Below, in pieces: positions 4,846 to 46,953 of a stretch of DNA of 64,000 bases. The position numbers and the translations under genes were made by a program. The stretch is from positions 449,476 to 513,475 of the forward strand of contig OZ241920.1 of the NCBI GenBank assembly GCA_965203885.1. Reading direction: 5' to 3'. Under the pieces are notes generated by a model. The model made no database searches and was not told where the DNA came from. It was given only the letters and a program-made list of their open reading frames with translations. Every line of letters begins with the position of its first letter. Within the stretch, counting starts at the first letter, position 1. This DNA is from a bacterium (lineage in GTDB: Bacteria > JAAXHH01).

Positions 4846-5172
4846 ATGCCCATCCGTCCCTATGAAGACGCCATCGTCGGCCTGACGCCCGCGGACGACA
4901 AGGTCCATCACATCCTCCCCGACTTCCAGCGGACCCGGACGGGCTGTCCGCACGGCGTGGAGTTCTGGGTAACGATCCGCACGGTCTCGCGGGATGACGA
5001 ACCGCTGATCCTGCAGTGGTGCATGACGTGCCGGCAGGTGGATGTCCTCAGGCTGGAAGAATACGACTGGCGCACGCGCCTAGAGGAGCTGCGGACGGAT
5101 GAGGTCGCGGACCGCCTGGACCGCCCGGACGGCCCGGACCGGCCGGACTGGCGGGAGCCGGACCTGGCGTAA
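4846..5172 (+). CDS. hypothetical protein (108 aa) with two Cys pairs (CPHG...CMTC)
   Basis: Intact ORF divergent from the formamidase gene. It has no obvious SD sequence. Its last 30 nt plus the stop codon are tandemly duplicated just downstream. Confidence 0.4.
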   Translation: MPIRPYEDAIVGLTPADDKVHHILPDFQRTRTGCPHGVEFWVTIRTVSRDDEPLILQWCMTCRQVDVLRLEEYDWRTRLEELRTDEVADRLDRPDGPDRPDWREPDLA

Positions 5173-5220
5173 ACGGAACCGGCCGGACGGCCGGACTGGC
5201 GGGAGCCGGACCTGGCGTAA
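5130..5220. repeat. 48-bp tandem duplication that includes the stop codon of the upstream ORF
   Basis: ccggactggcgggagccggacctggcgtaa occurs at 5143-5172 and again at 5191-5220. Confidence 0.85.
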
Positions 5221-5322
5221 ATGGATAGCCCGGATGGACTGGCGGATAGCCCGGACGGAACCGCCGGGCAGTCGACGACGAGAAATCTGGATCACGAATC
5301 AACCCTTCGAAGGAGCGCGGGC

Positions 5323-6264
5323 ATGGCCAAGAAGAAAATGTGGGGCGAGGAGCATTCCAAGTACATCTGGCTGGACGGGGAGCAGGTTCCCTGGGACCAG
5401 GGTACGGTACACGTCACCCAGGGTCATATTTTCGCCCACGCCATTTTCGAGGGGATCAGGGCCTACTGGAACGGCGACCGGGGAAAACTCTACGTCTTCC
5501 GCTTCGAAGATCACCTGAAACGCCTGTACAGGTCGATCAAGCTGATGCGGATGGAAACGCCGTACACGCTGGAAGACGTGACGAACGGCTCCCTCGAGCT
5601 GTGCCGGGTCCACGGGTACCGGGAGGACGTCTACGTCTTCCCGACCGTGTATTTCTCGCCGGACGTGTATCTCAACAAGATGGCCGGTCCGGCCCATGTA
5701 TACGTCCACACTTTTCCCTACGGATCCAACCTGCACAGGAAGGACGGCGCCCGGTGTTCGGTCAGTTCCTGGACGCGTATTTCGGACAACACGCTCCCGG
5801 CCCGCATCAAGTGCTGGGCCAACTACCGCAACAGCGCCATCGCGTGGACGGACGCCACGCTCAAGGGATTCGACGAAGCGATCATGCTGAACAACCGCGG
5901 CAAGGTCTGCGAGGCGCCGGGCGCCTGCCTGATGATGATCCAGGACGGCGTCCTCATCACCCCGCCGGTCACGGCCGATATCCTGGTGAGCGTCACCCGG
6001 GATACCATATTGAAGATCGGGCGTGAAGTGCTCGGGATGCCGGTCGTGGAAAGGGAGGTCGACCGGACGGAGCTGTATACGGCCGACGAGGTGTTCCTGT
6101 GCGGTACCGGCGCGGAGGTGACGCCGGTCGCTTCGATCGACAACTACGACGTCGGGGACGGTGCCATCGGTCCGTTCACGCAGCGGTTCCGCACGGCCTA
6201 CAACGATCTCATCCGGGGGATCGACGAACGCTTCCCCGAATGGCGCACCGAGGTGCCCCTGTAG
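5323..6264 (+). CDS. ilvE: branched-chain amino acid aminotransferase (class IV PLP aminotransferase)
   Basis: FEGIRAY and the class IV fold signature. An AGGAG sits 7 nt upstream of the ATG at 5323. The track ORF starting at 5221 adds a non-coding repeat-rich leader. Confidence 0.8.
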   Translation: MAKKKMWGEEHSKYIWLDGEQVPWDQGTVHVTQGHIFAHAIFEGIRAYWNGDRGKLYVFRFEDHLKRLYRSIKLMRMETPYTLEDVTNGSLELCRVHGYREDVYVFPTVYFSPDVYLNKMAGPAHVYVHTFPYGSNLHRKDGARCSVSSWTRISDNTLPARIKCWANYRNSAIAWTDATLKGFDEAIMLNNRGKVCEAPGACLMMIQDGVLITPPVTADILVSVTRDTILKIGREVLGMPVVEREVDRTELYTADEVFLCGTGAEVTPVASIDNYDVGDGAIGPFTQRFRTAYNDLIRGIDERFPEWRTEVPL

Positions 6265-6317
6265 CGCCCGCGGCGCGAACGGCGCAGGTAGTGCGGCGGC
6301 GCATGTAGAGCCCGAGG

Positions 6318-6396
6318 CGCGGCGGCTCAGGGGTTCCGGTTTTCGGCGGCTCAGGGGTTCCGGTTTTCGGCGGCTCAGGGGTTCCGGTTTTCGGCG
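6318..6396. repeat. 24-bp direct tandem repeat x3 at a convergent gene junction
   Basis: cggcggctcaggggttccggtttt x3. It overlaps the last codons of the PIG-L gene. Confidence 0.85.
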
Positions 6397-15740: not shown

Positions 15741-15827
15741 TTCCGGCCGTCCGGCAGTCATTTCTTCGGCCGCCGGGGTTGAACCGCGCCGCGTCCCTGG
15801 TTATATTGTAACTGTAAAACGTCCCAA

Positions 15828-16203
15828 GTCGTCCAGGCGATCGCGTTCGCCGGCAAGGCGGACGAGGAAAGTCCGAGCACCGCAGGGCGGGATGCCTGCT
15901 AACGGCAGGGGGCAGTGATGCCACGGAAAGTGTCACAGAAAACACACGGCCGATCCCTTCGGGGAGGCAAAGGTGAAAAGGTGAGGTAAGAGCTCACCGC
16001 GGTCCGGGTAACCGGTCCGGCAGGACAAACCCCATCCGGTGCAAGACCGAATAGGAGAGGAGAGACGGCCCGTCTCGACCGCCGGGAAACCGGAGACTCT
16101 CGGGTAAGGTCGCACGAGGCGGCTGGCGACAGCCGTCCCAGATAGATGATCGCCACCTTCACCGCGAAGGCACAGAACTCGGCTTACGGCCGGCTTGGAC
16201 GTT
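15828..16203 (+). ncRNA. rnpB: RNase P RNA, bacterial type A
   Basis: Conserved regions are present in order. CR-I GAGGAAAGUCCG. The P10-P12 block AAGGUGAAAAGGUGAGGUAAGAGCUCACC. CR-IV/V ACAGAACUCGGCUUA. P1 pairing between 15830-15838 and 16193-16201. An AT-rich patch (ttatattgtaactgtaaaac) lies just upstream. The ORFs overlapping this interval are spurious. Confidence 0.85.
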
Positions 16204-34070: not shown

Positions 34071-35556
34071 GGCGTCGCCAGGAGACGACAACTGCGGTTG
34101 AAGAGAACAGGAATCCGGCGCCGCACAACGCGATCACCACCAGATCCCAGGCGGGGCGATGGTCGATGAGAACACGGAAATCCAGGCTGTGAAGGCCATT
34201 GTACAGCCAGCGGCGCGCGCGTCCTGTCTCAGTGAGTTGGTTAATCAGCTCACCGGTGGTGAGGTCGATGTGGTACCAGGTGGCGTTGGCATCATCGAAG
34301 CGCACCCGCAACACGGGCAGCGTACGCCAGCGCTTGTGGTGGGAGTAATAGTAGATATCGTAATCAGTAAGCCGCTCGACCGAGACGGTCCCGTGGCCTG
34401 CCATGACCTGCTTTATTTGCGCGAGGGCGGATTCCTCGAGACGGCCCTGCTCCAATGAAGTCAGCATTTGACGTCGGCCGTCGCCGGCGACGGCGTATGC
34501 GTAGTGCGATTCACCCAGCCATTGCCACACCAGTTCCCGCGTGTCGGGCGGGAGGTCCAGGTTGCGGCCGGGCGACGCGAAGGCTTCATGAGCCAGGTTG
34601 TCTCCGACGGCGGGAGCGCCTTTGTACGCGGCGAGCCGCGCGCTGAAGGGGATTTCATCGTCGAACACCCCCCAGGGGTTCATCGACAGGAGGCCGCTGA
34701 CCAAGTAAGTCGTCAGCGGTACCAGGAAAATCAGCCCCAGGATGTGGTGCAGTTGCATGGTGCCCCGGTAGGGGGTCATCACGTTGCGGCGATAGCGCTT
34801 GCGAAGCCGCAGGCGCACGAAGCCGATCACCGCACCGGAGACAATGGACACCAACCCGGCGAGTGAGAGTACCACGACGACCCAGTGCCAGATCGAGCTG
34901 TGGCGGCGGAGCTGCAGCGGATAGATCCAGTGCAGGTTCGCCCCTAGCCAGTTCCAGCCCCGTTCCAGCGCGCTGGTATCCCGCACCACTTCCCCGGTCG
35001 CCGAAGAGACATACAGTTCGGTGCCCGCCGGATCGTTCAGCGCCACCGAGTGGAGCGGCCGATGGGGATGGAGGCTGCTGGACACGGACCACTGGTCCAT
35101 GAACAGGAGCGCCTGGTGAACCGGTTGCGTCGGCGGGAGGCCCGCCGAGTGGGCAAAAACCCGGCTCGCGTGGACGGCGTCTTCCGCGTCGATTTCGCCG
35201 ATCCTGGCGCCGGTGTCGGCAAACAGGCCATGGCGCGTGCCGTCGCCGGAGCGCAGAAGCCAGGCGGGCCGTCCAAGCACGGAGGTAAGCCGCAGTTCCT
35301 CGATGATCTGCGACGGATCGAGGCGCTGCAACAGGTCGGCCGGGCCGAACCGCAGTTTATCCTGTTCGAGTTCCGGCAGCGCGGCGAGTCGTTCCGCCCG
35401 TGTCAAGGACGGAAATCCCACATACATCATCACCACGCCGGATAAAAACCACATGGCCACGAGCAGGCACATGAAGATCCCGAGCCAGCGGTGGGTGAGG
35501 TAGAGCCAGCGGCGGGTGCGATACAGGCAGTGGCGGATGTTCAAAGCCAGATTCAA
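34012..35556 (-). CDS. PepSY-associated TM helix protein (PiuB-like membrane protein)
   Basis: Topology typical of PepSY_TM proteins (RWLYLTHRWLGIFMCLLVAMWFLSGVVMMY ... four TM helices with HR/HW motifs). Start assigned to a TTG at 35554-35556 that overlaps the WD40 stop as TTGA. The track's 165-codon N-terminal extension overlaps the WD40 gene and is Arg-rich junk. Confidence 0.75.
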   Translation of the reverse strand: MNLALNIRHCLYRTRRWLYLTHRWLGIFMCLLVAMWFLSGVVMMYVGFPSLTRAERLAALPELEQDKLRFGPADLLQRLDPSQIIEELRLTSVLGRPAWLLRSGDGTRHGLFADTGARIGEIDAEDAVHASRVFAHSAGLPPTQPVHQALLFMDQWSVSSSLHPHRPLHSVALNDPAGTELYVSSATGEVVRDTSALERGWNWLGANLHWIYPLQLRRHSSIWHWVVVVLSLAGLVSIVSGAVIGFVRLRLRKRYRRNVMTPYRGTMQLHHILGLIFLVPLTTYLVSGLLSMNPWGVFDDEIPFSARLAAYKGAPAVGDNLAHEAFASPGRNLDLPPDTRELVWQWLGESHYAYAVAGDGRRQMLTSLEQGRLEESALAQIKQVMAGHGTVSVERLTDYDIYYYSHHKRWRTLPVLRVRFDDANATWYHIDLTTGELINQLTETGRARRWLYNGLHSLDFRVLIDHRPAWDLVVIALCGAGFLFSSTAVVVSWRRLIRIRKRQHARQAQQAQQA

Positions 35557-36599
35557 CTGCTGCCCACCCGCCAGACCGTTACGCCGCCCTGCGCGTCGAG
35601 CGCGGCGAGTGCGCGGCCGTCCGGCCGCCAATACAATCCGGAGACGACGTCCGCCACGGCCCCGGTCCCTATCCGGCCGCCTTTGCCGTCTCGCTTGAGC
35701 GACCACGCAACCACGGCCCCGTCGCGGCCTCCCGATGCCAGGCGCATGGCGCCGGGCGCGAAGGATAGCTTCGTTATGGGCTGAACGTGATACTCCAGGA
35801 CGCCGGGCCGCGTGCCTTCGGGACCCGTTCCCCGGAAGCTCCAGACCGTCACCGCCTCCGCTCCGCCGGTGGCCAGCAGCGTGCCGGTGGCATCGAACGC
35901 CAGGGCCGACGGCTTGTTGGGATATCCGGACATCATGGAGTCCTTCCCCGAGGAGCGACGCCAGAAGTGCACCGAGTTGTCCTGGCTGCCGCAGGCCACG
36001 ATACCCCCGCCCGGACTCAGTACCATCGACACCAGGGATCCCTGCCACTCCAGCGTCTGTTGAGGCTCGCCGGTGTACGCGTCGAAGAACGTGACGCGAC
36101 CGTAACAGGCCGACGCCAGTTCCTCCGCGCTCGACCAGGCGATGGCGCTGACGGTGCTGGGATGATCTTCGGACCGCCAGACCTCCGTGCTGTCCACGTC
36201 ATATACGCGAACCTGCCTGGAGCAGGTGGCCGCCAGCCATTGGCCGTCCGGCGACCACGCCACGTTTTCCACCCAGCCGCTTCCGACGTCGATCGTCCCG
36301 CTTACCTGGCCATCGGCGGCGCTCCAGATCAGGACCCGGCTGTCCTGCCCAGCCGTGGCGAACGTGGTCCCGCCCGGGTGCATCGCCACCGCGAGCAGAC
36401 CGCCCTCATGGATCCCGCGACGTGCCCAGGAGGGCGCGCCGGATTTGCCGTCGAACGCGTAGACACCGCCCGCGGAATCACCGACCATCAGGGCCTCGCC
36501 GCGCAGGCTCCAACCCCCCGCGATGGCGTAGTCGTCGACCGACGCGGACCAACCCCGGCGCAGCGCACCCCTCGAGCTGCCGGCGTTCAGACCAGACAT
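35553..36599 (-). CDS. WD40-repeat beta-propeller protein (cytoplasmic)
   Basis: Repeated GxxDxxVxxW / WS blades across 348 aa. No signal peptide. Overlaps the COG0523 stop by 13 nt and the PepSY start by 4 nt. Confidence 0.8.
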   Translation of the reverse strand: MSGLNAGSSRGALRRGWSASVDDYAIAGGWSLRGEALMVGDSAGGVYAFDGKSGAPSWARRGIHEGGLLAVAMHPGGTTFATAGQDSRVLIWSAADGQVSGTIDVGSGWVENVAWSPDGQWLAATCSRQVRVYDVDSTEVWRSEDHPSTVSAIAWSSAEELASACYGRVTFFDAYTGEPQQTLEWQGSLVSMVLSPGGGIVACGSQDNSVHFWRRSSGKDSMMSGYPNKPSALAFDATGTLLATGGAEAVTVWSFRGTGPEGTRPGVLEYHVQPITKLSFAPGAMRLASGGRDGAVVAWSLKRDGKGGRIGTGAVADVVSGLYWRPDGRALAALDAQGGVTVWRVGSS

Positions 36600-37933
36600 G
36601 CATCGAACCCCTTCCGCATGCTCTGCTCATCGAGATTGCGTCCGATGAAGACGAGCTGATTGCGGCGGGGCTCGTCTCCCCATGGGCGGTCCGGCTGGCC
36701 GTCAAAGAGCATGTGAACGCCCTGGAAGACGAAGCGGCGCGACTCGCCCGCGAGGCTGATGAAGCCCTTCATCCGGAAGATGTCCACCCCCCGTTCCATG
36801 AGCAGTTCACTAAGCCACGCGTTGAGCCGGTCGGGACTGACGTCGCCGTCCCGCTCGATTGCGATCGAGCCCACTTCGTCGTCGTGCTCATGCTGTGCGA
36901 CCCAGGTGCGCTCGGCCTCATGCCCGATGGCCGTGCCTTCCGCGTTCTTCACCTGGAGATCGAACTCATCGGCGGTGTGCTGGGCGAAGAGGCCTACCCG
37001 CTGCCGTGTATCGACTTCCAGGAAGAACGACTTGCGCCCCGGGATATCGAGCTGAAGGTTCACGTGCTTTCCGACAGGAATCTTATCCCCCGGGCTGATC
37101 TGCTCCGCAGGTTCGGCGTACCGCCGCACGCACCACTCCGCGCCCTCGCGGAGGGCAGCGTCATCCGTGTCCTGTTCGGGCACGACGACGAGCGACATCG
37201 CCGGATCAGGCCCTTCAGCGAGGCTGATTTCGTAGCGGCCGGCATCGAGCGAATAGACGCCCGTCCATTCGAAGGGGTATTCCGGCTCGAGGAAGGTGGG
37301 ACGAACCTCGAGCACCTGGTCCAGGTCGAAGGCCTCGAGGTTGAGCACTGTGTCGACGGTGACGTTCGCCCGCTCGCTGCGCACGACTTTCGCCATTCGG
37401 TTCATTTCCCGGAGCCGGGTTTCGAGCCGGTCGAGGGCCTCGTTGTCGACCAGGTCCGTCTTGTTGAGCACCAGGACGTCGGCAAAGGCGATTTGCTCGG
37501 TGCTTTCGTCGCTTCGGCCGAGCTGTTGCTCGATGTGGGCCGCGTCGACGAGCGTGACGATCCCGTCAAGGGCGTACTCCGTGCGAATCTCGTCGTCCAT
37601 GAAGAAGGTCTGGGCGACCGGGCCCGGATCGGCGAGCCCCGTGGTCTCCACCAGCACGTAGTCGAACTTGTCGCGGCGCTTCATGAGATTGCCGAGCACG
37701 CGGATCAGGTCACCGCGCACCGTGCAGCAGATGCAGCCGTTCGACATCTCGAAGATCTCTTCGTCCGCGTCGATGACGAGGGCCTGATCGATGCCGACCT
37801 CCCCGTACTCGTTCTCGATCACGGCGATGCGCTTGCCGTGCTCCTCGGTCAGGATCCGGTTGAGCAGGGTCGTCTTGCCGGATCCGAGGAAGCCGGTGAG
37901 GATGGAAACGGGTACTTTTTGCGGCGTGTTCAT
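36587..37933 (-). CDS. COG0523-family GTPase, putative zinc metallochaperone (CobW/YciC/ZigA-like)
   Basis: P-loop GFLGSGKTT. Metal-binding GCICC (CxCC). NKTD. C-terminal CobW_C-like domain. A His/acidic-rich insertion (AQHEHDDEV). It is adjacent to zur and znuABC. Confidence 0.85.
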   Translation of the reverse strand: MNTPQKVPVSILTGFLGSGKTTLLNRILTEEHGKRIAVIENEYGEVGIDQALVIDADEEIFEMSNGCICCTVRGDLIRVLGNLMKRRDKFDYVLVETTGLADPGPVAQTFFMDDEIRTEYALDGIVTLVDAAHIEQQLGRSDESTEQIAFADVLVLNKTDLVDNEALDRLETRLREMNRMAKVVRSERANVTVDTVLNLEAFDLDQVLEVRPTFLEPEYPFEWTGVYSLDAGRYEISLAEGPDPAMSLVVVPEQDTDDAALREGAEWCVRRYAEPAEQISPGDKIPVGKHVNLQLDIPGRKSFFLEVDTRQRVGLFAQHTADEFDLQVKNAEGTAIGHEAERTWVAQHEHDDEVGSIAIERDGDVSPDRLNAWLSELLMERGVDIFRMKGFISLAGESRRFVFQGVHMLFDGQPDRPWGDEPRRNQLVFIGRNLDEQSMRKGFDACLV

Positions 37934-37976: not shown

Positions 37977-38438
37977 TCAGTCCGCATCGTTTTTCTCCGA
38001 AACGCACTGCGCGCAGGTCCCCAGCAGTTCGACGACCGGCCGCCTGGTACGGAATCCAATCTCATTGCCCGCCGCTTTCAGGCTCATGGCCACGCTGGGG
38101 TCTTCGACCTCGGCCACCTCGCCGCAGTCATCGCAGATCAGGAACTGGCTGGCGTGCGGATGATCCGGATGCGCGCAGCCCACATAGGCGTTCAGGCTCT
38201 CGAGCTTGTGCACCAGGCCCTGGTCGAGCAGGAAATTCAATGCCCTGTAGACCGTAGGCGGCGCGGGATTCCTGACCACGCCGCGCATGCGCTCCAATAG
38301 CTCGTAGGCACTGAGCGGCTTTTCTGATACGCACAGCAGCTCAAGCGCGGCCTTGCGTTGTTCGGTCAACCGCGCGCCGCGCTCACGGCACAGCGCCTCG
38401 GCTCGTTCGAGTACCTGGGAAAGCGTTTTGTTATCCAT
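37977..38438 (-). CDS. zur: Fur-family regulator, most likely Zur
   Basis: Winged-helix N-terminus. Metal sites HPDHPHxxxxICxxC ... CxxC. It lies between znuA and the COG0523 gene. Confidence 0.8.
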   Translation of the reverse strand: MDNKTLSQVLERAEALCRERGARLTEQRKAALELLCVSEKPLSAYELLERMRGVVRNPAPPTVYRALNFLLDQGLVHKLESLNAYVGCAHPDHPHASQFLICDDCGEVAEVEDPSVAMSLKAAGNEIGFRTRRPVVELLGTCAQCVSEKNDAD

Positions 38439-38548
38439 GGGTTTCTCCTCGCCATGCACTTCTTCGTGGCGGCCGGTTGCGAACAGCGGCGATCACGGAC
38501 TGCGGAAATCCTGCGGACAAGACATGTACGCCCGTTCTCCTGAACCGA

Positions 38549-39490
38549 TCAGGCGCCTAAGGCGGCGACTAATGTACGGATGTTGTGCAGCATCATGCCA
38601 AGGTGGGTGCCGGCCGGCCCGTCCTCCCTCGACAGCGCGTCCGAATAGAGCGTGCCGCCGATCCGCGCTCCGGTTTCCCGGACGATCTGGTCGAGCAGGC
38701 GGCGGTCGGAGATGTTGTCGACGAAGACGGCCGGGATCTTTTCCCTTTTTATCTGACGGATCAGCCTGGCGACGTCGCCCGCGGACGCCTCCGCTTCGGT
38801 GCTGAAACCGACCGGCGCATGGAATTCGATGCCATAGGCCGCCGACAGATAGCCGAACGCGTCGTGGGATGTGACCACCTTGCGCCGTTCGGCCGGAAGC
38901 GAATCGACCGCCTTGCGGACCTGTGCCTCCACCGCGTCGATCTCCTCCATGTAGCGCGCCGCGTTGCAGCGATAGATGTCGGCCCCCGCGGGGTCGATCG
39001 CGGCCAGGCCATCGGCGATGTTGCGGACATAGATCCGGGTATTGGCCAGACTCTGCCAGGCATGGGGGTCGATCTCGCCCTGGTCGTGATCCGCCATCCT
39101 GCGGGGTGCGACGCCGGCGGTCGCCGTCACGATGCGTCCCTTGTAGCCGGATGCCTCAGTCAGGCGTTCTATCCAGCCCTCGAAACCCAGTCCATTGATG
39201 ACCAGCAGCCTGGCTCCGGCGACGGCCCGGGCGTCCGCCGGGGTCGGGCGATAGACGTGCGCGTCGGCGTCGGGGCCGACGAGGGTGGTGACGCGTACCC
39301 GGTCCCCGCCTACCTGCCGGACCATATCGCCCAGGATGCTGAAGGAGGCGACGACGTCGACGGCGGCGTGGGCCCGGGCGGTCACCGGCCCCGAAAGGGC
39401 GATCAAGCCGGCGGCGAGTACGTAAGAAAGGACAGCACGTCGGGATATCATGGGATTTCGCTTCAGTTTATGGTGATGTATTGGGATCAT
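38549..39490 (-). CDS. znuA: ZnuA/TroA-family metal ABC transporter substrate-binding protein
   Basis: Cluster 9 SBP fold. The start ATG at 39488-39490 overlaps the znuB stop as ATGA. Tat-like SRRAVLSYVL signal. His-rich extreme N-terminus (IPIHHH). Confidence 0.85.
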   Translation of the reverse strand: MIPIHHHKLKRNPMISRRAVLSYVLAAGLIALSGPVTARAHAAVDVVASFSILGDMVRQVGGDRVRVTTLVGPDADAHVYRPTPADARAVAGARLLVINGLGFEGWIERLTEASGYKGRIVTATAGVAPRRMADHDQGEIDPHAWQSLANTRIYVRNIADGLAAIDPAGADIYRCNAARYMEEIDAVEAQVRKAVDSLPAERRKVVTSHDAFGYLSAAYGIEFHAPVGFSTEAEASAGDVARLIRQIKREKIPAVFVDNISDRRLLDQIVRETGARIGGTLYSDALSREDGPAGTHLGMMLHNIRTLVAALGA

Positions 39491-40362
39491 GCTTCCAGGT
39501 GACGGCGGGGCCTGAGGTGCGTCATGATTACGCCGTCAGGTCCGAAGGAGAGCGAGAACAGATAGAACGCCCCCGCCGTCAGGATGATGGCGGGGCCGGA
39601 AGGCAGACTGGCGTGATAGGACAACAACAGGCCGACGAACCCGCCCAGGAAGGCCGCGAGCATACCGATGACCAGCAGGGGCGTGACGTCGCGCGTCCAG
39701 AACCGGGCGGCGGCGGCGGGCAGGATCATGATCCCCACCGCCATCAGGGTCCCCAGGGCATGAAACCCGCCCACCAGGTTGAGGACCGCCAGGACGAGGA
39801 AGCTGTAATGGGCCACCGGACTCAAGGCGCTGACCGAGCGGAGAAACCCCGGGTCGAAACACTCCATCACCAGTGGCCGGTAGATGATGGCGAGCCCGAA
39901 CAGGGTGACCGTGGCGATACCCGCGACCAGGAATATGGCCGCGTCGTTCAAGGCGAGCACCGTGCCGAACAGGATGTGCAACAGGTCGACATTGCTTCCG
40001 CGCGTCGAGACGATCACGACCCCGACGGCGAGGGAGATCAGGTAGAAGGCGGCCAGGCTGGAATCCTCGCGGGCCACGGTGGTTCGGGCTACCAGTCCGG
40101 AGAGCAAAGCCACCGTCACGCCCGCGATCACCCCGCCGAGCGTCATGGCGCCGAGCGACAGCCCCGCCACGAGGTATCCGAGGGCCGCGCCGGGAAGAAT
40201 GGCATGGGCCATGGCGTCCCCGGTGAGGCTCATCCGCCGCAAGGTCAGGAACACCCCGATGGGGGTCGCCCCCAGCGACAGGGCAAGGCACCCGACGAGG
40301 GCCCTGCGCATGAAGCCGAATTCGACGAAGGGGGCGATAACGGCATCGTACATCACGGACAC
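39487..40362 (-). CDS. znuB: ABC-3 family metal transporter permease
   Basis: 291 aa, eight predicted TM helices, ZnuB/MntB-like. Confidence 0.9.
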   Translation of the reverse strand: MSVMYDAVIAPFVEFGFMRRALVGCLALSLGATPIGVFLTLRRMSLTGDAMAHAILPGAALGYLVAGLSLGAMTLGGVIAGVTVALLSGLVARTTVAREDSSLAAFYLISLAVGVVIVSTRGSNVDLLHILFGTVLALNDAAIFLVAGIATVTLFGLAIIYRPLVMECFDPGFLRSVSALSPVAHYSFLVLAVLNLVGGFHALGTLMAVGIMILPAAAARFWTRDVTPLLVIGMLAAFLGGFVGLLLSYHASLPSGPAIILTAGAFYLFSLSFGPDGVIMTHLRPRRHLEA

Positions 40363-40390: not shown

Positions 40391-41128
40391 TCATCTCACA
40401 CATACGGCCGCCTCTTCGTCAAAGGCCTCGGTGAGCCGGCGTGCCTGTTCGAGATTCGCCGGAGAAAGCACGTGCTCCGTCGGTCCGGCGGCGATCTGCT
40501 CGCGGGCCAGCAGCAGGGTTTCCGGGAAATCCGTCCGGACCTGGTCCAGGTCGTGTAAGACGGCGACCACCGTCCGCCGCTCCCCGTGCCAGCGACGGAT
40601 GAGTCCTTTGAGATCACGCACCGTCGCCGAATCGATGGACGTGAACGGCTCGTCCAGCAGGATCAGCCGCGCGTCCTGGAGGAGCAGGCGGGCGAACAGG
40701 GCACGTTGCATCTGCCCTCCGGAGAGGGTGCCGATGGGGCGCTTCTCGAAACCACTCAATCCCACGATTTCCAGGGCCTCGCCGATCTTCCGGCGGCCCT
40801 CCCGTCCGAAACGGCGGAAAGCCCCGGTCGTTCGCCAAAGTCCCATGGCCGCCATGTCGTAGACCGAGATCGGGAAACTCTGATCGATTTCGGACTGCTG
40901 CGGAAGGTATGCGATTTCCGACGCATCGATCCCCGTCAACCTGATCTCGCCTCCGAGCGGTGTCAGGCTGCCGACGGTCCCTTTGAGCAGCGTCGACTTT
41001 CCGGCGCCGTTCGGTCCCACCACGGCGACCAGGGCGCCTTCACGGATGGCATAATCGAGATGATGGACCGCGGGGTGGCGGTCGTATCCGAGGGTCAGGT
41101 TATCGAACCGCAGGATCGTACCATCCAT
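40391..41128 (-). CDS. znuC: metal ABC transporter ATP-binding protein
   Basis: Walker A GPNGAGKST, LSGGQ, Walker B. An in-frame upstream extension to 41221 would add (AMSTTP)x4 encoded by the 18-bp repeats. The start is ambiguous. Confidence 0.85.
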   Translation of the reverse strand: MDGTILRFDNLTLGYDRHPAVHHLDYAIREGALVAVVGPNGAGKSTLLKGTVGSLTPLGGEIRLTGIDASEIAYLPQQSEIDQSFPISVYDMAAMGLWRTTGAFRRFGREGRRKIGEALEIVGLSGFEKRPIGTLSGGQMQRALFARLLLQDARLILLDEPFTSIDSATVRDLKGLIRRWHGERRTVVAVLHDLDQVRTDFPETLLLAREQIAAGPTEHVLSPANLEQARRLTEAFDEEAAVCVR

Positions 41129-41136
41129 CGTCGAAC

Positions 41137-41201
41137 TCATAGCGGGTGTCGTACTCATAGCAGGTGTCGTACTCATAGCGGGTGTCGTACTCATAGCAGG
41201 G
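41137..41201. repeat. 18-bp direct tandem repeat x about 3.6 at the 5' end of znuC
   Basis: tcatagc[g/a]ggtgtcgtac x3 plus a partial copy. On the minus strand each copy carries an in-frame ATG. Confidence 0.85.
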
Positions 41202-41354
41202 CCCAGACGACCGCAAACCACAATAGACCGGCGGCGCCGCCGACAAGTGCCAGACGGGCTACGATGCCGGCCCGCAGGGGAGAGAATCCGGATTTATTCA
41301 TTAATTGCGACATGACAATACGCGCGAGTAATCGAGGCGCCGCTCACCTTACGA

Positions 41355-41445
41355 GGCGCCGCCCACGGTTTGGGGCGCGGCCCACAGTCCGTGCCGCCGC
41401 CCACCGTTTGGGGCGCGGTCCACAGTCCAGCCGCCGCCTACCGTT
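41355..41445. repeat. roughly 36-bp direct repeat x about 2.5 between the NicO-like gene and znuC
   Basis: gccgcccac[g/c]gtttggggcgcgg[c/t]ccacagtcc repeats. Confidence 0.75.
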
Positions 41446-42479
41446 TACAAATCCACTATATGATTCAGTACAAAGGACGCGTTCAGCGCCCACAGTCCCA
41501 TAAGCAACAGTAGGGCACCGCCCACCGCGCCCAGGCCGGCGGCCGCGAGTGTCCACAACGGCGACCGGTGCGCGACCATCTCACTCGCCAGGTCTCGCGC
41601 CTTCGTCGCGATAACGGCCAGGGTTACGATGGTGATCGCGGTACCTGTGGACATGGCGATAACGGAAAGCGCGCCATGCCAGATCAAATCCATCACGGCG
41701 GCAATGACCAGCACGAACACCGCTCCGGTGCAAGGGCGCAGTCCAATGGCCAGCACCAGGCCGGCCGCCGCGTGCCGGCTGCCGGCCGTATCTATCTCGG
41801 CAGCGCTCGGCAGATGCCGGCAGCTGCCACCTTCCCCTTCCGCTTGATCGGCATGGTCGTGGCGGACTTCGCCGGGTTCGCCCCGCAACTGGCGAACACA
41901 CGCGGGCACGGCGCGCGCGGCGCGTATCAGCAAGTAGAGTCCGACCAATGCCAGCATGGCGAAACTGACTCGCGTAGCCCACAAGGATGCGGATTCCGTC
42001 TCAATCGGCAGCCGACCAGCCAGACCAATCGGAACGTAAACAATCAACAGCGCCGTCACGCCTTGCAGAAACGCAGCTGCCGCGCCCATGGCGATACCGC
42101 GGTTCAGCCGGCTTCGATGGGTCATCAGGTAGGTCGTCAGCACGACTTTCCCGTGCCCGGGCCCCGCGGCGTGCAAGACCCCGTAAACAAAGCTCATCAG
42201 CACCAAAGCCCAGCCGACGCTGTTCTGGCCGCGCATCGAGCCCAGCTCCTGCGTCAGTTGCAGGAGGAATTCGTTCTGCTTTGTCCAGATCCAGGTCGCC
42301 GTCTGATCCCAGATCGCAACCGCCTGTGGGGTGCCGGCGAGACTTTCAGCGCTGGGTTGTCCGGCGTCGACAGGCTCGCCCGGCAGCATCGTTGTCGCGT
42401 AGAGATCCGCCGAGCATGCGATGGCGCATAGCCATGCGAGACAGACTGCCATGTACCCACTCACGCGCATCATATGCAT
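41445..42479 (-). CDS. NicO/RcnA/HoxN-family metal-cation permease with signal peptide and His-rich loop
   Basis: The family signature HAAGPGHGK. A second half-site motif. His-rich loop HDHADQAEGEGGSCRH. Start set at the ATG cluster MHMM at about 42479. The track start at 42551 lies inside the 34-bp repeat leader. Confidence 0.75.
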   Translation of the reverse strand: MHMMRVSGYMAVCLAWLCAIACSADLYATTMLPGEPVDAGQPSAESLAGTPQAVAIWDQTATWIWTKQNEFLLQLTQELGSMRGQNSVGWALVLMSFVYGVLHAAGPGHGKVVLTTYLMTHRSRLNRGIAMGAAAAFLQGVTALLIVYVPIGLAGRLPIETESASLWATRVSFAMLALVGLYLLIRAARAVPACVRQLRGEPGEVRHDHADQAEGEGGSCRHLPSAAEIDTAGSRHAAAGLVLAIGLRPCTGAVFVLVIAAVMDLIWHGALSVIAMSTGTAITIVTLAVIATKARDLASEMVAHRSPLWTLAAAGLGAVGGALLLLMGLWALNASFVLNHIVDL

Positions 42480-42510
42480 CGAACAGTCACCTTTAAAACA
42501 AACGGAATGC

Positions 42511-42630
42511 CGGGTCATCGCCGATCGCTTCATTGCAGCCAGTCGGGTCATCGCCGATCGCTTTCATTGCAGCCAGTCGGGTCATCGCCGATCGCTTTCA
42601 TTGCAGCCAGTCGGGTCATCGCCGATCGCT
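42511..42630. repeat. 34-bp direct tandem repeat x about 3.6 in the 5' leader between the Zur box and the NicO-like start codon
   Basis: cgggtcatcgccgatcgctttcattgcagccagt occurs at 42511, 42544 and 42578, with a partial copy at 42612. Confidence 0.9.
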
Positions 42631-42634
42631 GACT

Positions 42635-42654
42635 GTAATGTTATAACATAACAA
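42635..42654. promoter_or_regulatory. Zur box (perfect palindrome ATGTTATAACAT within TGTAATGTTATAACATAACA)
   Basis: A 12-bp perfect inverted repeat matches the core of the proteobacterial Zur consensus (GTTAT-A-ATAAC). It lies immediately downstream of the -10 of the promoter at 42664-42691. Confidence 0.7.
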
Positions 42655-42663
42655 AACAGACAC

Positions 42664-42691
42664 ATAATAGCATGTCGAGATTCGTTGTCAA
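42664..42691 (-). promoter_or_regulatory. sigma-70-type promoter TTGACA-N16-TATTAT driving the Zur-controlled minus-strand cluster
   Basis: Minus-strand TTGACA (complement of 42686-42691), a 16-nt spacer, then TATTAT (complement of 42664-42669). The Zur box starts 10 nt downstream of the -10. Confidence 0.55.
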
Positions 42692-42791: not shown

Positions 42792-42868
42792 GATCAGATA
42801 TTCGATGTAATCAGGTGCGGGGCGTTGCTGGAGGTGGGTTCAGTTGCCGGGCGTTGCTGGAGGTGGAA

Positions 42869-44481: not shown

Positions 44482-46953
44482 TCAACGTGCTTCGTCCAGC
44501 GTAGAAAGTAGTTTTTCAAGGGCGTTCTCACCCGAAGTCACCCGGAGTTCGATATCCACCGCGGCCAGGTGGTTGACGATGGCGTGGTCCGGCGGGATCC
44601 GTACGGCGTCCTTCTCCGTCGTGACGATGCATTCCGCGCCCGATCCTTCCGCCAGGGACACCGCCCGGTCCAGCTCGGAAGGGGTGAAGGGGTGGTGATC
44701 CGGGTAGGCCAGGACCCGGGTCACGCGTGCCCCGGCATCGGCGACCGTTCGCGCGAAGGAGGCGGGATTGGCGATACCGCAGAGGACAAGGACGTTGCGT
44801 CCGGCCAGCCACTCCACCGGCAGCGTCCCGTCGTCCGAAGACAGCGTCCCGTCGTCCGAAGACAGCGTCCCGTCGTCCACCAGCCGCCGCAGTCCCGCGG
44901 GGTGGTAGACTGTTTCGATCAGGGCCAGGTGGGGGAATTCGCCCTTGATGCGCGCCGTATCTACAACCGCGGAACGGGCCTGGTCCGTCCGTGTCAGGAC
45001 CAGTGCGTGTGCCCGGCCGAGCGAGGATGCCGGTTCGCGGAAGGGACCCGCCGGGAGCAGGCTCACGGGGGACAGCCGGTTGGACGCGTCGTGTACCACG
45101 ATGTCTATCTCGCGGCCGGTCCTCCGGTGCTGGAATCCGTCGTCCAGAATCAGCACGTCCGCGCCATGCCGGTCAATGGCCAGCCGTCCCGACGCGGTGC
45201 GGCTCGGGCCTACGATCACCGGCACGTCGGGAAGCGCCGAGGCCAGGAAGGCCGGTTCGTCGCCGACTTCCTGCCAGGTGGCGCCCGGTGCAGCGGCCCG
45301 GGTCGCGCGGGAGTTTCTTCCGTAGCCCCGGCTCAGGACGGCGGGCCGGTAACCGGCCTGCTTCAGCCGGCCGGTGAGGAATCGCACCACGGGCGTCTTG
45401 CCCGCGCCGCCCGCGGTCAGTGCGCCGACGCTGACCACTGGGACAGAAAGCCGGTCGGAATCCATCAACTTCATGTCGTACAGACAGTTGCGGAGCCTGA
45501 CCACCATACCCATCAGCAGGGACGGGGGGAGGAGCGCGGTGCGCATGAGACGAATGCCCGGGGCGCGCTCGCCGGGGTCCATCAGCCGGGTAATGAACGG
45601 GGTGCCTTGCGGGAAGCGCGACGGATAGCTCGACGAGTAACGCGATGTGTAACGCGGCAACCCGGATTCGCTTAGATCCGGGTCCAATATCCACCTGTCG
45701 ACCAGGTCCAGGGTGCGGTCCACGGCCCTCGAGCTTTCGCGTACGGCCTGGCCGGCGGCCGCACCCGTCCGCGCACGCTTCTGCGGGTCTTCCAGCAATT
45801 CGAGCCATTGCCTTGCGAGTTCGTCGCCGTCGCGTACGACCAGGCCTCCGCCGGTTCGCAGCAGGGCCGCCTCGCTTGCCCGGACGTTCTCGGTGTGGGG
45901 GCCGAACAGAACCGGTATGGAGCAGGCCGCGGGCTCCAGCAGGTTGTGCCCGCCGAGGGGGACCAGCGTGGCGCCGACGAAGGCCATGTCCGCGGCGGCG
46001 TACATGGCCGAAAGTTCGCCCATGGTGTCCAGGATGATTACATCGAAATGGACGGGGTCCCGCGTGTCCTGGCGGGTTCGGTGGGCGTACGCGAGTCCCG
46101 CCCCCCGCAGCATCTCCTCTACCTCCGGTACGCGGTTGAGATGCCGCGGCGCCCAGATCAGCCTTACCTCGGGATGCCGTTCGTGGACGCGGGCGAAGGC
46201 CGCCAGGACGGCTCTTTCCTCTTTCACGGGCCGGGGGCATCCCGCCATGATCACCGGTACGGACGCGGAGAGGCCGAGTTCACGGCGCAGCGCTTCTCGC
46301 CCGGGGCCCGCCTGTTCGGCGGCCAGGTCGAATTTTACGTTGCCCGTCACCCGCACCCGTTCCGGGTCCGCGCCATAAGCGATGAGCCGTTCACCGTCGA
46401 GCGCATGCTGGACACCCACGGCGGCCAGGCGCCGCAGCATGTGCCTGAACAGCGGTCTCACGAAACGGTTCCGCGCGAGACTGCGGTCCGACATGCGGCC
46501 GTTGACCAGGGCTACGGGGCAGTCGTGGGCGGCGGCCGCCTCGAGCATACCGGGCCAGAGTTCCCCCTCGAGCAGAATCAGTGCGCGGGGGCGTACCCGT
46601 CCGAATACGCGGCGGACGATGAACGGCGCGTCGAGGGGCGCCAGTCCGTGATACCGTGCCTGCCTTACATGCTGCCTGACATAGGCCAGGCCGGTCTCGG
46701 TCGTGGTGGTCACCAGCACGGCGAAACCGGGATGACGCTCCACGAAGCGGCTAACCACGGCCGCCAGGCCGGTGGCCTCGCCCACGGAGGCGCAGTGGAA
46801 CCAGACGACAGGGCGATTCTCGTCATCGTCGATTAGCGGCCGCTGGCCGAGCCGCTGGCGCATCCCGTAGCAGTCCAGGATGGACAGGCAGGCCAGGACC
46901 GGAGAGAACAGCACGGTCAGCGTGGAATAGAGCAGGATGTAGATTAAGTTCAT
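44482..46953 (-). CDS. bifunctional Kdo transferase (WaaA/KdtA) - tetraacyldisaccharide 4'-kinase (LpxK) fusion
   Basis: The N-terminal half has the WaaA signature WFHCASVGE. The C-terminal half has the LpxK P-loop VVSVGALTAGGAGKTP. The linker contains DDGTLSSDDGTLSSDDGTL from an in-frame 21-bp x3 repeat (about 44820-44880). Confidence 0.85.
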   Translation of the reverse strand: MNLIYILLYSTLTVLFSPVLACLSILDCYGMRQRLGQRPLIDDDENRPVVWFHCASVGEATGLAAVVSRFVERHPGFAVLVTTTTETGLAYVRQHVRQARYHGLAPLDAPFIVRRVFGRVRPRALILLEGELWPGMLEAAAAHDCPVALVNGRMSDRSLARNRFVRPLFRHMLRRLAAVGVQHALDGERLIAYGADPERVRVTGNVKFDLAAEQAGPGREALRRELGLSASVPVIMAGCPRPVKEERAVLAAFARVHERHPEVRLIWAPRHLNRVPEVEEMLRGAGLAYAHRTRQDTRDPVHFDVIILDTMGELSAMYAAADMAFVGATLVPLGGHNLLEPAACSIPVLFGPHTENVRASEAALLRTGGGLVVRDGDELARQWLELLEDPQKRARTGAAAGQAVRESSRAVDRTLDLVDRWILDPDLSESGLPRYTSRYSSSYPSRFPQGTPFITRLMDPGERAPGIRLMRTALLPPSLLMGMVVRLRNCLYDMKLMDSDRLSVPVVSVGALTAGGAGKTPVVRFLTGRLKQAGYRPAVLSRGYGRNSRATRAAAPGATWQEVGDEPAFLASALPDVPVIVGPSRTASGRLAIDRHGADVLILDDGFQHRRTGREIDIVVHDASNRLSPVSLLPAGPFREPASSLGRAHALVLTRTDQARSAVVDTARIKGEFPHLALIETVYHPAGLRRLVDDGTLSSDDGTLSSDDGTLPVEWLAGRNVLVLCGIANPASFARTVADAGARVTRVLAYPDHHPFTPSELDRAVSLAEGSGAECIVTTEKDAVRIPPDHAIVNHLAAVDIELRVTSGENALEKLLSTLDEAR

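Follow-up and report, generated by a model that had tools for sequence, protein, structure and literature searches.

Why should a permease of the nickel/cobalt transporter type stand at the head of an operon for zinc import? This question is raised by a NicO-family gene in the 64,000-nucleotide (nt) bacterial stretch analysed here (contig OZ241920.1, positions 449,476 to 513,475; hereafter the window), which is read on the minus strand ahead of znuC, znuB, znuA, zur and a COG0523 gene. By homology, its product is a permease of the ZevB family, that is, the membrane half of the zinc system ZevAB, and the DUF1007 (ZevA) gene expected upstream of it has been deleted, leaving a remnant at this locus. 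Taken together, the data make it probable, though well short of certain, that this gene encodes a zinc-uptake permease derepressed through Zur, which works beside the ABC importer and has now lost its periplasmic donor. As a finding on this stretch, it is modest: the protein is readily placed in a known family, and only the gene loss is out of the ordinary.

The gene that the first-pass annotation, made from the letters of the sequence, had proposed here is a real open reading frame (ORF), whose 344 codons remain intact across relatives. Translation likely begins at ATG 42479, since the AGGTG Shine-Dalgarno motif 8 nt 5' of it and the MHMMR/MQMMR N-terminus are conserved among orthologues, whereas a longer in-frame ORF, reaching 42551, begins within a tandem repeat that the orthologues do not have.

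The protein was first assigned to a NicO/HoxN/RcnA superfamily on account of its HAAGPGHGK signature. The profile search suggested at that stage indeed gave a match well above the cutoff, Pfam NicO (PF03824) being hit in two stretches with 86.5 bits against a gathering cutoff of 27.7 (E 2.5e-24), so that membership of the NicO/RcnA clan stands, while identity with RcnA or with HoxN/NiCoT itself does not. The NCBIfam RcnA model PRK10019 scores the protein at 42.1 bits, below its cutoff of 195; E. coli RcnA is only 21% identical to it (E 9e-7); and its neighbours are guaA, znuCBA, zur and COG0523, with no rcnR or rcnB near. As to HoxN/NiCoT, the H....DH (HX4DH) motif of their second transmembrane helix was sought in the protein and not found, and the predicted core comprises six helices, preceded by one at the N-terminus, instead of eight. 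On the other hand, the relationship to ZevB extends over the full length. P. canis ZevB (P0380; such handles denote homologous proteins) is 28% identical over 266 residues in BLASTP (E 3e-30), and against a profile built from the relatives of the window protein, the ZevB proteins of Pasteurellaceae reach 188-205 bits and RcnA of E. coli reaches 67. ZevB was reached by a search seeded with an Orbus homologue, and the Pasteurellaceae matches bear the NCBI name 'zinc transporter permease subunit ZevB'. Several traits are common to the window protein and ZevB and absent from RcnA, namely an N-terminal helix, an amphipathic W-Q...F helix, and the motifs SFxYGVxHAxGPGHGK, MQGV, a CxC-H-x-HLP loop and IGxRPC(S/T)GA. 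The family is a large one, with 850 representatives at E <= 1e-30 after clustering at 50% identity. ZrgD and ZrgE of V. cholerae, also considered as relatives, are DUF2607 and DUF3299 proteins and unrelated.

ZevAB was reported from Haemophilus influenzae by Rosadini et al. (2011, Infect Immun 79:3366). This pair (HI1249/HI1248) is described as a zinc system on which the bacterium depends when zinc is severely restricted and in the mouse lung (PMC3417392). ZevA is reported to bind zinc in Haemophilus. The initial view that little was known of this family with respect to zinc overlooked a precedent present both in the literature (PMC3417392) and in the NCBI name ZevB.

The predicted architecture of the protein is that of a carrier with an ordinary inner-membrane core. 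According to the positive-inside rule applied to 22 homologues, residues 28-84 form a periplasmic acidic linker and an amphipathic helix, followed by six core helices with cytoplasmic loops at 120-128, 189-236 and 293-309. The hydrophobic N-terminal segment (residues 9-27) is conserved and could be an N-in helix, a signal peptide or a membrane anchor. No support was found in this topology for the trans-envelope metal handler that had been proposed as one possibility. The signature HAAGPGHGK occupies residues 103-111 and RPC residues 248-250, within RPCTGA (248-253), and all family-invariant residues are retained. The His-rich loop noted in the first-pass annotation exists, at 189-236, but is only moderately His-rich here: it contains 4 His, 2 Cys and 8 Asp/Glu, whereas the mean His plus Cys count of the 22 homologues is 8.5. 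The loop motif reads ...GGSCRHLPS, in which the first Cys of CGC is replaced. An AlphaFold model derived from the 22 sequences is weak, with a mean predicted local distance difference test score (pLDDT) of 60 and a predicted template modelling score (pTM) of 0.49. To look for a LysE/DsbD-like fold (3+3 inverted-repeat carriers), this model was compared with the PDB by Foldseek, which gave no match at E < 1, CcdA (5vkv) being third with a TM-score of 0.38, and a profile search of PDB sequences returned no homologue with a solved structure. In P0010, a close homologue of 376 residues, a (GHDHA/V)n repeat has been expanded in the cytoplasmic loop, and in its clade, to judge from the aligned proteins, the length of the metal-binding loop varies through repeat expansion.

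The gene is preceded by a strong, near-consensus sigma-70-type promoter (Table 1), whose -35 CTTGAC is conserved among orthologous promoters, and a candidate Zur box lies immediately downstream of the -10 element. The palindrome ATGTTATAACAT is unique in the window even with one mismatch allowed (0.02 expected). In the related loci, here numbered from L001, the box is conserved in L001-L006 and L009 while its flanks diverge, and the 12-mer, with at most one mismatch, is found at the 5' end of operons in L001-L011, L017, L018, L024, L033, L035, L036, L040, L046 and L068. In these related loci the recurrent 12-mer precedes DUF1826, znuA, DUF1007 or zur genes, and about 0.01-0.04 exact matches would be expected by chance in the 734 kb searched. 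Since the box recurs in this way and the operon contains zur, znuCBA and COG0523, a predicted Zur operator is by far the best reading of it. The first-pass placement of the gene as promoter-proximal behind a Zur-type box, in a unit with znuCBA, is thereby confirmed as far as promoter, box and same-strand znuC/B/A genes are concerned. COG0523 and DUF1826 are themselves predicted Zur-regulon members, the function of DUF1826 being unknown (PMC2770081). No paper placing the DUF1007/NicO/COG2215/RcnA family in a Zur regulon was found in the literature searched; the DUF1007-NicO pair is unmentioned in Haas et al. 2009. In L007 (Thiodiazotropha), two tandem DUF1826 genes (5074-6378) stand ahead of DUF1007-NicO-znuCBA-ZrgA behind the same 12-mer box, which is followed after 18 nt by another, weaker one.

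The most distinctive trait of the locus is the absence of the upstream DUF1007/ZevA gene, which the first-pass annotation missed while correctly seeing the zinc-operon position. A vestige of its 3' end remains in the 5' untranslated region (UTR), where about 12 final codons survive and carry the ribosome-binding site of zevB, and the approximately 65 nt before the zevB start align at the DNA level with the 3'-terminal part of the DUF1007 gene in L007. This vestige was read from alignments and falls below threshold in tblastn and hidden Markov model (HMM) scans. In L002, L006 and L009, the latter two methods do give a match at that position, confined to the 21-27 C-terminal residues of DUF1007, such as GTSEGGDDDLGIQFAEKVTIRC versus GINESGGDGLGIQFAETVTIRC. 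Apart from the vestige, the six-frame translation of the whole window contains no DUF1007 match at E <= 10, although the genome might carry a copy outside this stretch. A tandem repeat of 34 bp has arisen by amplification of part of this vestige; it lies in the 5' UTR, after the box and before the zevB ATG, and is confined to the window genome, being absent from L001-L006. A role of this repeat as a structured leader was considered and rejected, as shuffled controls fold just as well (z = 0.93). The surroundings of the locus are unusually rich in short tandem duplications, at 41130-41200, 41352-41446, 42511-42630, 42811-42866 and 44821-44878; they include an 18/36 bp x 3.8 repeat at the 5' end of znuC, which encodes MSTTPA three times, a 38 bp x 2.5 repeat in the zevB-znuC spacer and a 29 bp x 1.9 repeat after guaA. 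In the locus of Haemophilus ducreyi (L095, 4337-5007), the DUF1007 frame upstream of the ZevB homologue is split in two, with no gene called, which may reflect either decay of the partner or a sequencing frameshift.

How unusual this loss is can be seen from the family at large. A metagenome scan added 80 loci, and 92 were classed by their upstream state with a DUF1007 model rebuilt from Pfam-verified seeds. A DUF1007 gene stands directly upstream in 66 of the 92, is fused with NicO in one ORF in 4 (L032 and L067 confirmed by Pfam) and is absent from 9, the upstream sequence being cut off in the other 13. DUF1007 is thus directly upstream or fused in 70 of the 79 loci with readable upstream sequence. 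The fused proteins measure about 555 residues (L032 6209-7876, L067 6269-7942; also L050 and L066), and P0234, P0255 and P0260 (531-570 residues) have fusion-like lengths, P0255 starting with the DUF1007-like AHPHIWIDV. The loci without DUF1007, which are the window, L001, L002, L004, L005, L006, L009, L028 and L056, all lie in znu operons (9/9). ZnuA or ZnuB occurs within 5 kb in 18 of the 36 loci that extend for 2.5 kb or more to either side, and in no more than 9 of the 27 well-flanked loci that contain DUF1007. A neighbour-joining (NJ) tree places RcnA as a remote outgroup, joins the window clade to L009 as its sister, beside DUF1007-containing Thiodiazotropha-like loci, and sets L028 and L056 on branches of their own. 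Since the nine loci fall on about three branches, this tree implies about three independent losses of DUF1007.

The closest relatives of the window lineage are metagenome-assembled genomes (MAGs) from sponge metagenomes. L001-L006, several of which come from such metagenomes, share the synteny guaA / zevB-znuCBA-zur; L009 reads NicO-znuCBA-Fur-(unannotated ORF)-COG0523-WD40, and one distant locus znuA-DUF1007-NicO. The loci L001-L006 are near-identical (GuaA 96-98% identical), yet their MAGs are labelled Latescibacterota, Caldilineaceae (Chloroflexota) and Gemmatimonadetes, so at least some of the taxonomic labels or bins must be wrong.

Collectively, these data suggest the following scheme, which is built on sequence evidence. 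When zinc is sufficient, Zn-Zur would bind the palindrome downstream of the -10 element and block the zevB-znuC-znuB-znuA-zur-COG0523-WD40 unit; when zinc falls, the unit would be derepressed, and ZevB would let Zn(II) cross the inner membrane by another path, alongside the ZnuABC/AztABC-type importer. The invariant His-x5-His of the first transmembrane helix (HAAGPGHGK) and the Cys of the fourth (RPC) could form an intramembrane metal site, and the cytoplasmic loop, with its His, Cys and acidic residues, could receive or gate the ion. In most relatives, DUF1007 (ZevA) is translationally coupled to ZevB and presumably hands over the metal. With the DUF1007 gene deleted, ZevB of the window would therefore have to act alone or draw zinc from another periplasmic donor, the ZnuA/AztC-like protein being the obvious candidate. 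The first-pass annotation had offered a zinc importer under Zur control as one possibility; of this, a zinc-related role is the best-supported reading, owing to ZevB homology, box and operon, while uptake direction and specificity are what we infer from them. There is also a small chance, in our estimate, that the orphan ZevB has been rewired to take zinc from the ZnuA/AztC-type protein of the ABC importer transcribed with it. In that case a single binding protein in the periplasm would supply two carriers, one primary (ABC) and one secondary, and the nine ZevA-less loci in znu operons would be the footprint of this rewiring.

Several observations weigh against the gene being a Zur-derepressed zinc importer. 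The box is not found in all members, many alphaproteobacterial loci having a LysR-type gene upstream instead, and none occurs within 240 nt upstream of the K. pneumoniae DUF1007-NicO pair. As many as 18 of the 27 well-flanked DUF1007-containing loci are not beside znu genes; since many members adjoin neither znu genes nor the box, metal specificity may vary within the family. At the locus itself, a repeat-bearing spacer of 223 nt parts zevB from znuC, whose co-transcription is nonetheless likely. The lost partner, a dN/dS (ratio of nonsynonymous to synonymous substitution rates) that is the highest in the operon, and the replacement of the first Cys in the CGC motif of the loop are all compatible with weakened function. 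We know of no experiment or transport assay for the window protein or for any Zur-linked member. Finally, zevAB of H. influenzae is reported to respond to FNR/oxygen and not to zinc (PMC3417392), unlike the window gene, which lies with znuCBA, zur and COG0523 in one operon behind a Zur-type box.

Transport direction is not fixed by sequence alone, and the protein could instead be an RcnA-like exporter that removes competing Ni, Co and possibly Cd during zinc starvation, guarding against mismetallation. Derepressed importers and empty zinc sites raise mismetallation, which would explain the co-regulation of an efflux pump by Zur; the protein has its Pfam family and clan and the HxxxPGHxK and PC motifs in common with RcnA, and RcnA, the nearest characterised transporter of the clan, is annotated as a Ni/Co exporter with a periplasmic RcnB, which also counts against uptake. 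This export role appears improbable to us, however, as RcnA is distant (21% identity, 67 versus 188-205 bits, PRK10019 at 42 versus 195), no rcnR or rcnB is near, and neither a NiCo nor a cobalamin riboswitch was detected in the window or the 20 related loci scanned, including upstream of DUF1007-NicO loci not associated with Znu. Moreover, the ZevAB phenotype, a growth defect under zinc restriction, fits acquisition rather than efflux (PMC3417392). It is also unlikely that the protein is an accessory of ZnuABC/AztABC rather than an independent transporter, serving as a zinc relay, a sensor or a loader of exported proteins at the periplasmic face. The distribution of the nine DUF1007-less loci, all in znu operons and on about three NJ branches (window clade plus L009, L028, L056), compared with 9/27 DUF1007-containing loci with ZnuA/B nearby, would agree with such a function, but no evidence of physical coupling was found, the conserved intramembrane His/His/Cys motifs and the predicted six-helix core, perhaps of LysE/DsbD-clan type, point to a carrier, and most family members have no ABC transporter nearby.

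A last possibility is that the gene became useless after the loss of ZevA and is a drifting relic, kept only because the essential znu genes lie beyond it, on the far side from the promoter. Computed against five orthologues, dN/dS is 0.31-0.42 for zevB, as compared with 0.16-0.32 for znuA (leaving out a value of 1.7 for L002, an artefact of a frame offset), 0.22-0.27 for zur, 0.12-0.18 for znuC, 0.02-0.07 for znuB and 0.04-0.07 for guaA, and the ZevB protein is 67-80% identical to its orthologues, whereas products of flanking genes reach 96-99%. These values, together with the missing Cys of CGC and the expanded repeats of the 5' UTR, are what decay would produce. Nevertheless, dN/dS lies well below 1 and znuA and zur have comparable values, the ORF is intact in 7/7 related genomes and also in L009 despite the divergence, and every family-invariant residue is kept. 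The gene thus evolves under relaxed but purifying selection, as the fastest-evolving member of the operon, and its being a mere relic seems very unlikely.

Zinc uptake under Zur control, which we prefer, also allows the locus to be set beside characterised systems. ZevB of the Pasteurellaceae has the N-terminal helix, the periplasmic amphipathic helix, the six-helix core and the context of zinc limitation in common with the window protein. It differs by its coupled upstream zevA, of which the window keeps only the vestige of about 12 codons, and by lacking the roughly 30 additional acidic linker residues that the window protein has in the periplasm; in P. canis, the DUF1007 gene overlaps the zevB start and, unlike in the window, zevAB is not beside znu genes. 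RcnA (YohM) resembles the window protein in its Pfam NicO domain, H-x3-PGH-x-K in the first transmembrane helix, PC in the fourth, central metal-binding loop and association with a periplasmic partner (RcnB). However, it is without the N-terminal and amphipathic helices, its loop is far more His-rich, and RcnR allows its induction when metal is in excess, whereas the window unit is predicted to be derepressed by metal starvation. The NiCoT carriers (HoxN/NixA/NhlF, TC 2.A.52) are likewise secondary carriers of metal ions but have HX4DH and eight helices, whereas the window protein has no HX4DH and six predicted core helices. The three genes following zevB are of the kind found in AztABCD of Paracoccus denitrificans and ZnuABC of E. 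coli and, like zevB, are predicted to be controlled by Zur; ZevB, in contrast, is not an ABC component. A further likeness is offered by BP3077-BP3082 of Bordetella pertussis, which comprises a TonB-dependent receptor, a NicO-like protein, DUF1007 and an ABC transporter, is strongly induced in macrophages, and is read by its authors as a manganese importer (PMC9858536). Compared by description, it too links NicO-like and DUF1007 genes to a cluster A-I-type metal ABC transporter, differing from the window in that DUF1007 is kept and an outer-membrane receptor added. Its composition fits Zur-linked clusters, and a zinc role deserves consideration.

Most genome annotation labels members of the ZevB family 'nickel/cobalt transporter' or 'RcnA', and to our knowledge ZevAB is among the least understood bacterial zinc systems, with a single genetic study (2011) behind it and neither a structure nor a transport assay. 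HI1248 itself is annotated as being of the nickel/cobalt-transporter type (PMC3877243). The repeated occurrence of the DUF1007-NicO pair under a Zur-type box and beside znu genes, across diverse bacteria, supports a zinc role well beyond the Pasteurellaceae and suggests that many of the 'Ni/Co' annotations are wrong. The natural fusions (L032, L067) argue that DUF1007 and the permease act together physically. Since lineages such as this one do without the periplasmic partner solely where a znu operon houses the permease, the family also offers a testable idea on how the permease is supplied with metal.

Table 1. Positions of the zevB-like gene, its upstream elements and the downstream operon in the window
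Feature	Position	Strand	Remarks
Sigma-70-type promoter	42664-42691	minus	TTGACA, 16-nt spacer, extended -10 TG-n-TATTAT; 11/12 positions match
Candidate Zur box	42634-42653		TGTAATGTTATAACATAACA on the plus strand; perfect 12-bp palindromic core ATGTTATAACAT at 42638-42649
Tandem repeat, 34 bp x 3.6	42511-42630		5' UTR between Zur box and start; TRF (Tandem Repeats Finder) score 233, 98% matches
Vestige of DUF1007 (zevA-type) 3' end	42480-42525	minus	Translates to GIPFVLKVTVRC versus GIQFAETVTIRC, Thiodiazotropha DUF1007 C-terminus
zevB-like gene	41445-42479	minus	ATG 42479, stop 41445, 344 aa
ABC ATPase, ZnuC/AztA-like	40391-41221	minus	NCBIfam AztA 222 bits, cutoff 220; Pfam ABC_tran; MSTTPA x3 N-terminus
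ABC-3 permease, ZnuB/AztB-like	39487-40362	minus	Pfam ABC-3 E 1e-46; AztB 257 bits, below cutoff 280
Cluster A-I binding protein, ZnuA/AztC-like	38549-39490	minus	Pfam ZnuA E 4.7e-85; AztC 306 bits, below cutoff 350
Zur, Fur family	37977-38459	minus	Pfam FUR; best NCBIfam Zur PRK11639 135 bits, below cutoff 167
COG0523 GTPase	36587-37933	minus	Pfam cobW E 3.5e-62, CobW_C E 2.1e-27; ZigA model 200 bits, below cutoff
WD40 beta-propeller protein	35553-36599	minus	Pfam WD40 families

Downstream of zevB, the regulator gene zur is encoded inside the very unit that Zur is predicted to control. It is followed by the COG0523 gene, a member of a group of putative metallochaperones tied to zinc homeostasis and Zur regulons (Zur link: PMC2770081). 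The 13-nt overlap of the WD40 gene with the COG0523 gene, and conservation of this arrangement in L009, point to its belonging to the same transcription unit. The WD40 protein was considered as an AztD chaperone replacing ZevA and rejected, as no NCBIfam cutoff was reached and its PDB matches are canonical WD40 proteins only. The COG0523-WD40 pair also follows a Fur-family gene in L009 (11692-14165); a bacterial WD40 protein tied to a Zur/COG0523 cluster has no obvious explanation.

Elsewhere in the window, bacterial RNase P RNA of class A (15825-16201, plus strand, 274 bits) was the sole Rfam family found. In addition, a single ORF of 823 residues (44482-46953, minus strand) joins the domains of the WaaA/KdtA Kdo transferase (Glycos_transf_N) and the lipid A 4'-kinase LpxK, and a perfect 21 bp x 2.8 repeat inside this waaA-lpxK ORF encodes DDGTLSS three times.

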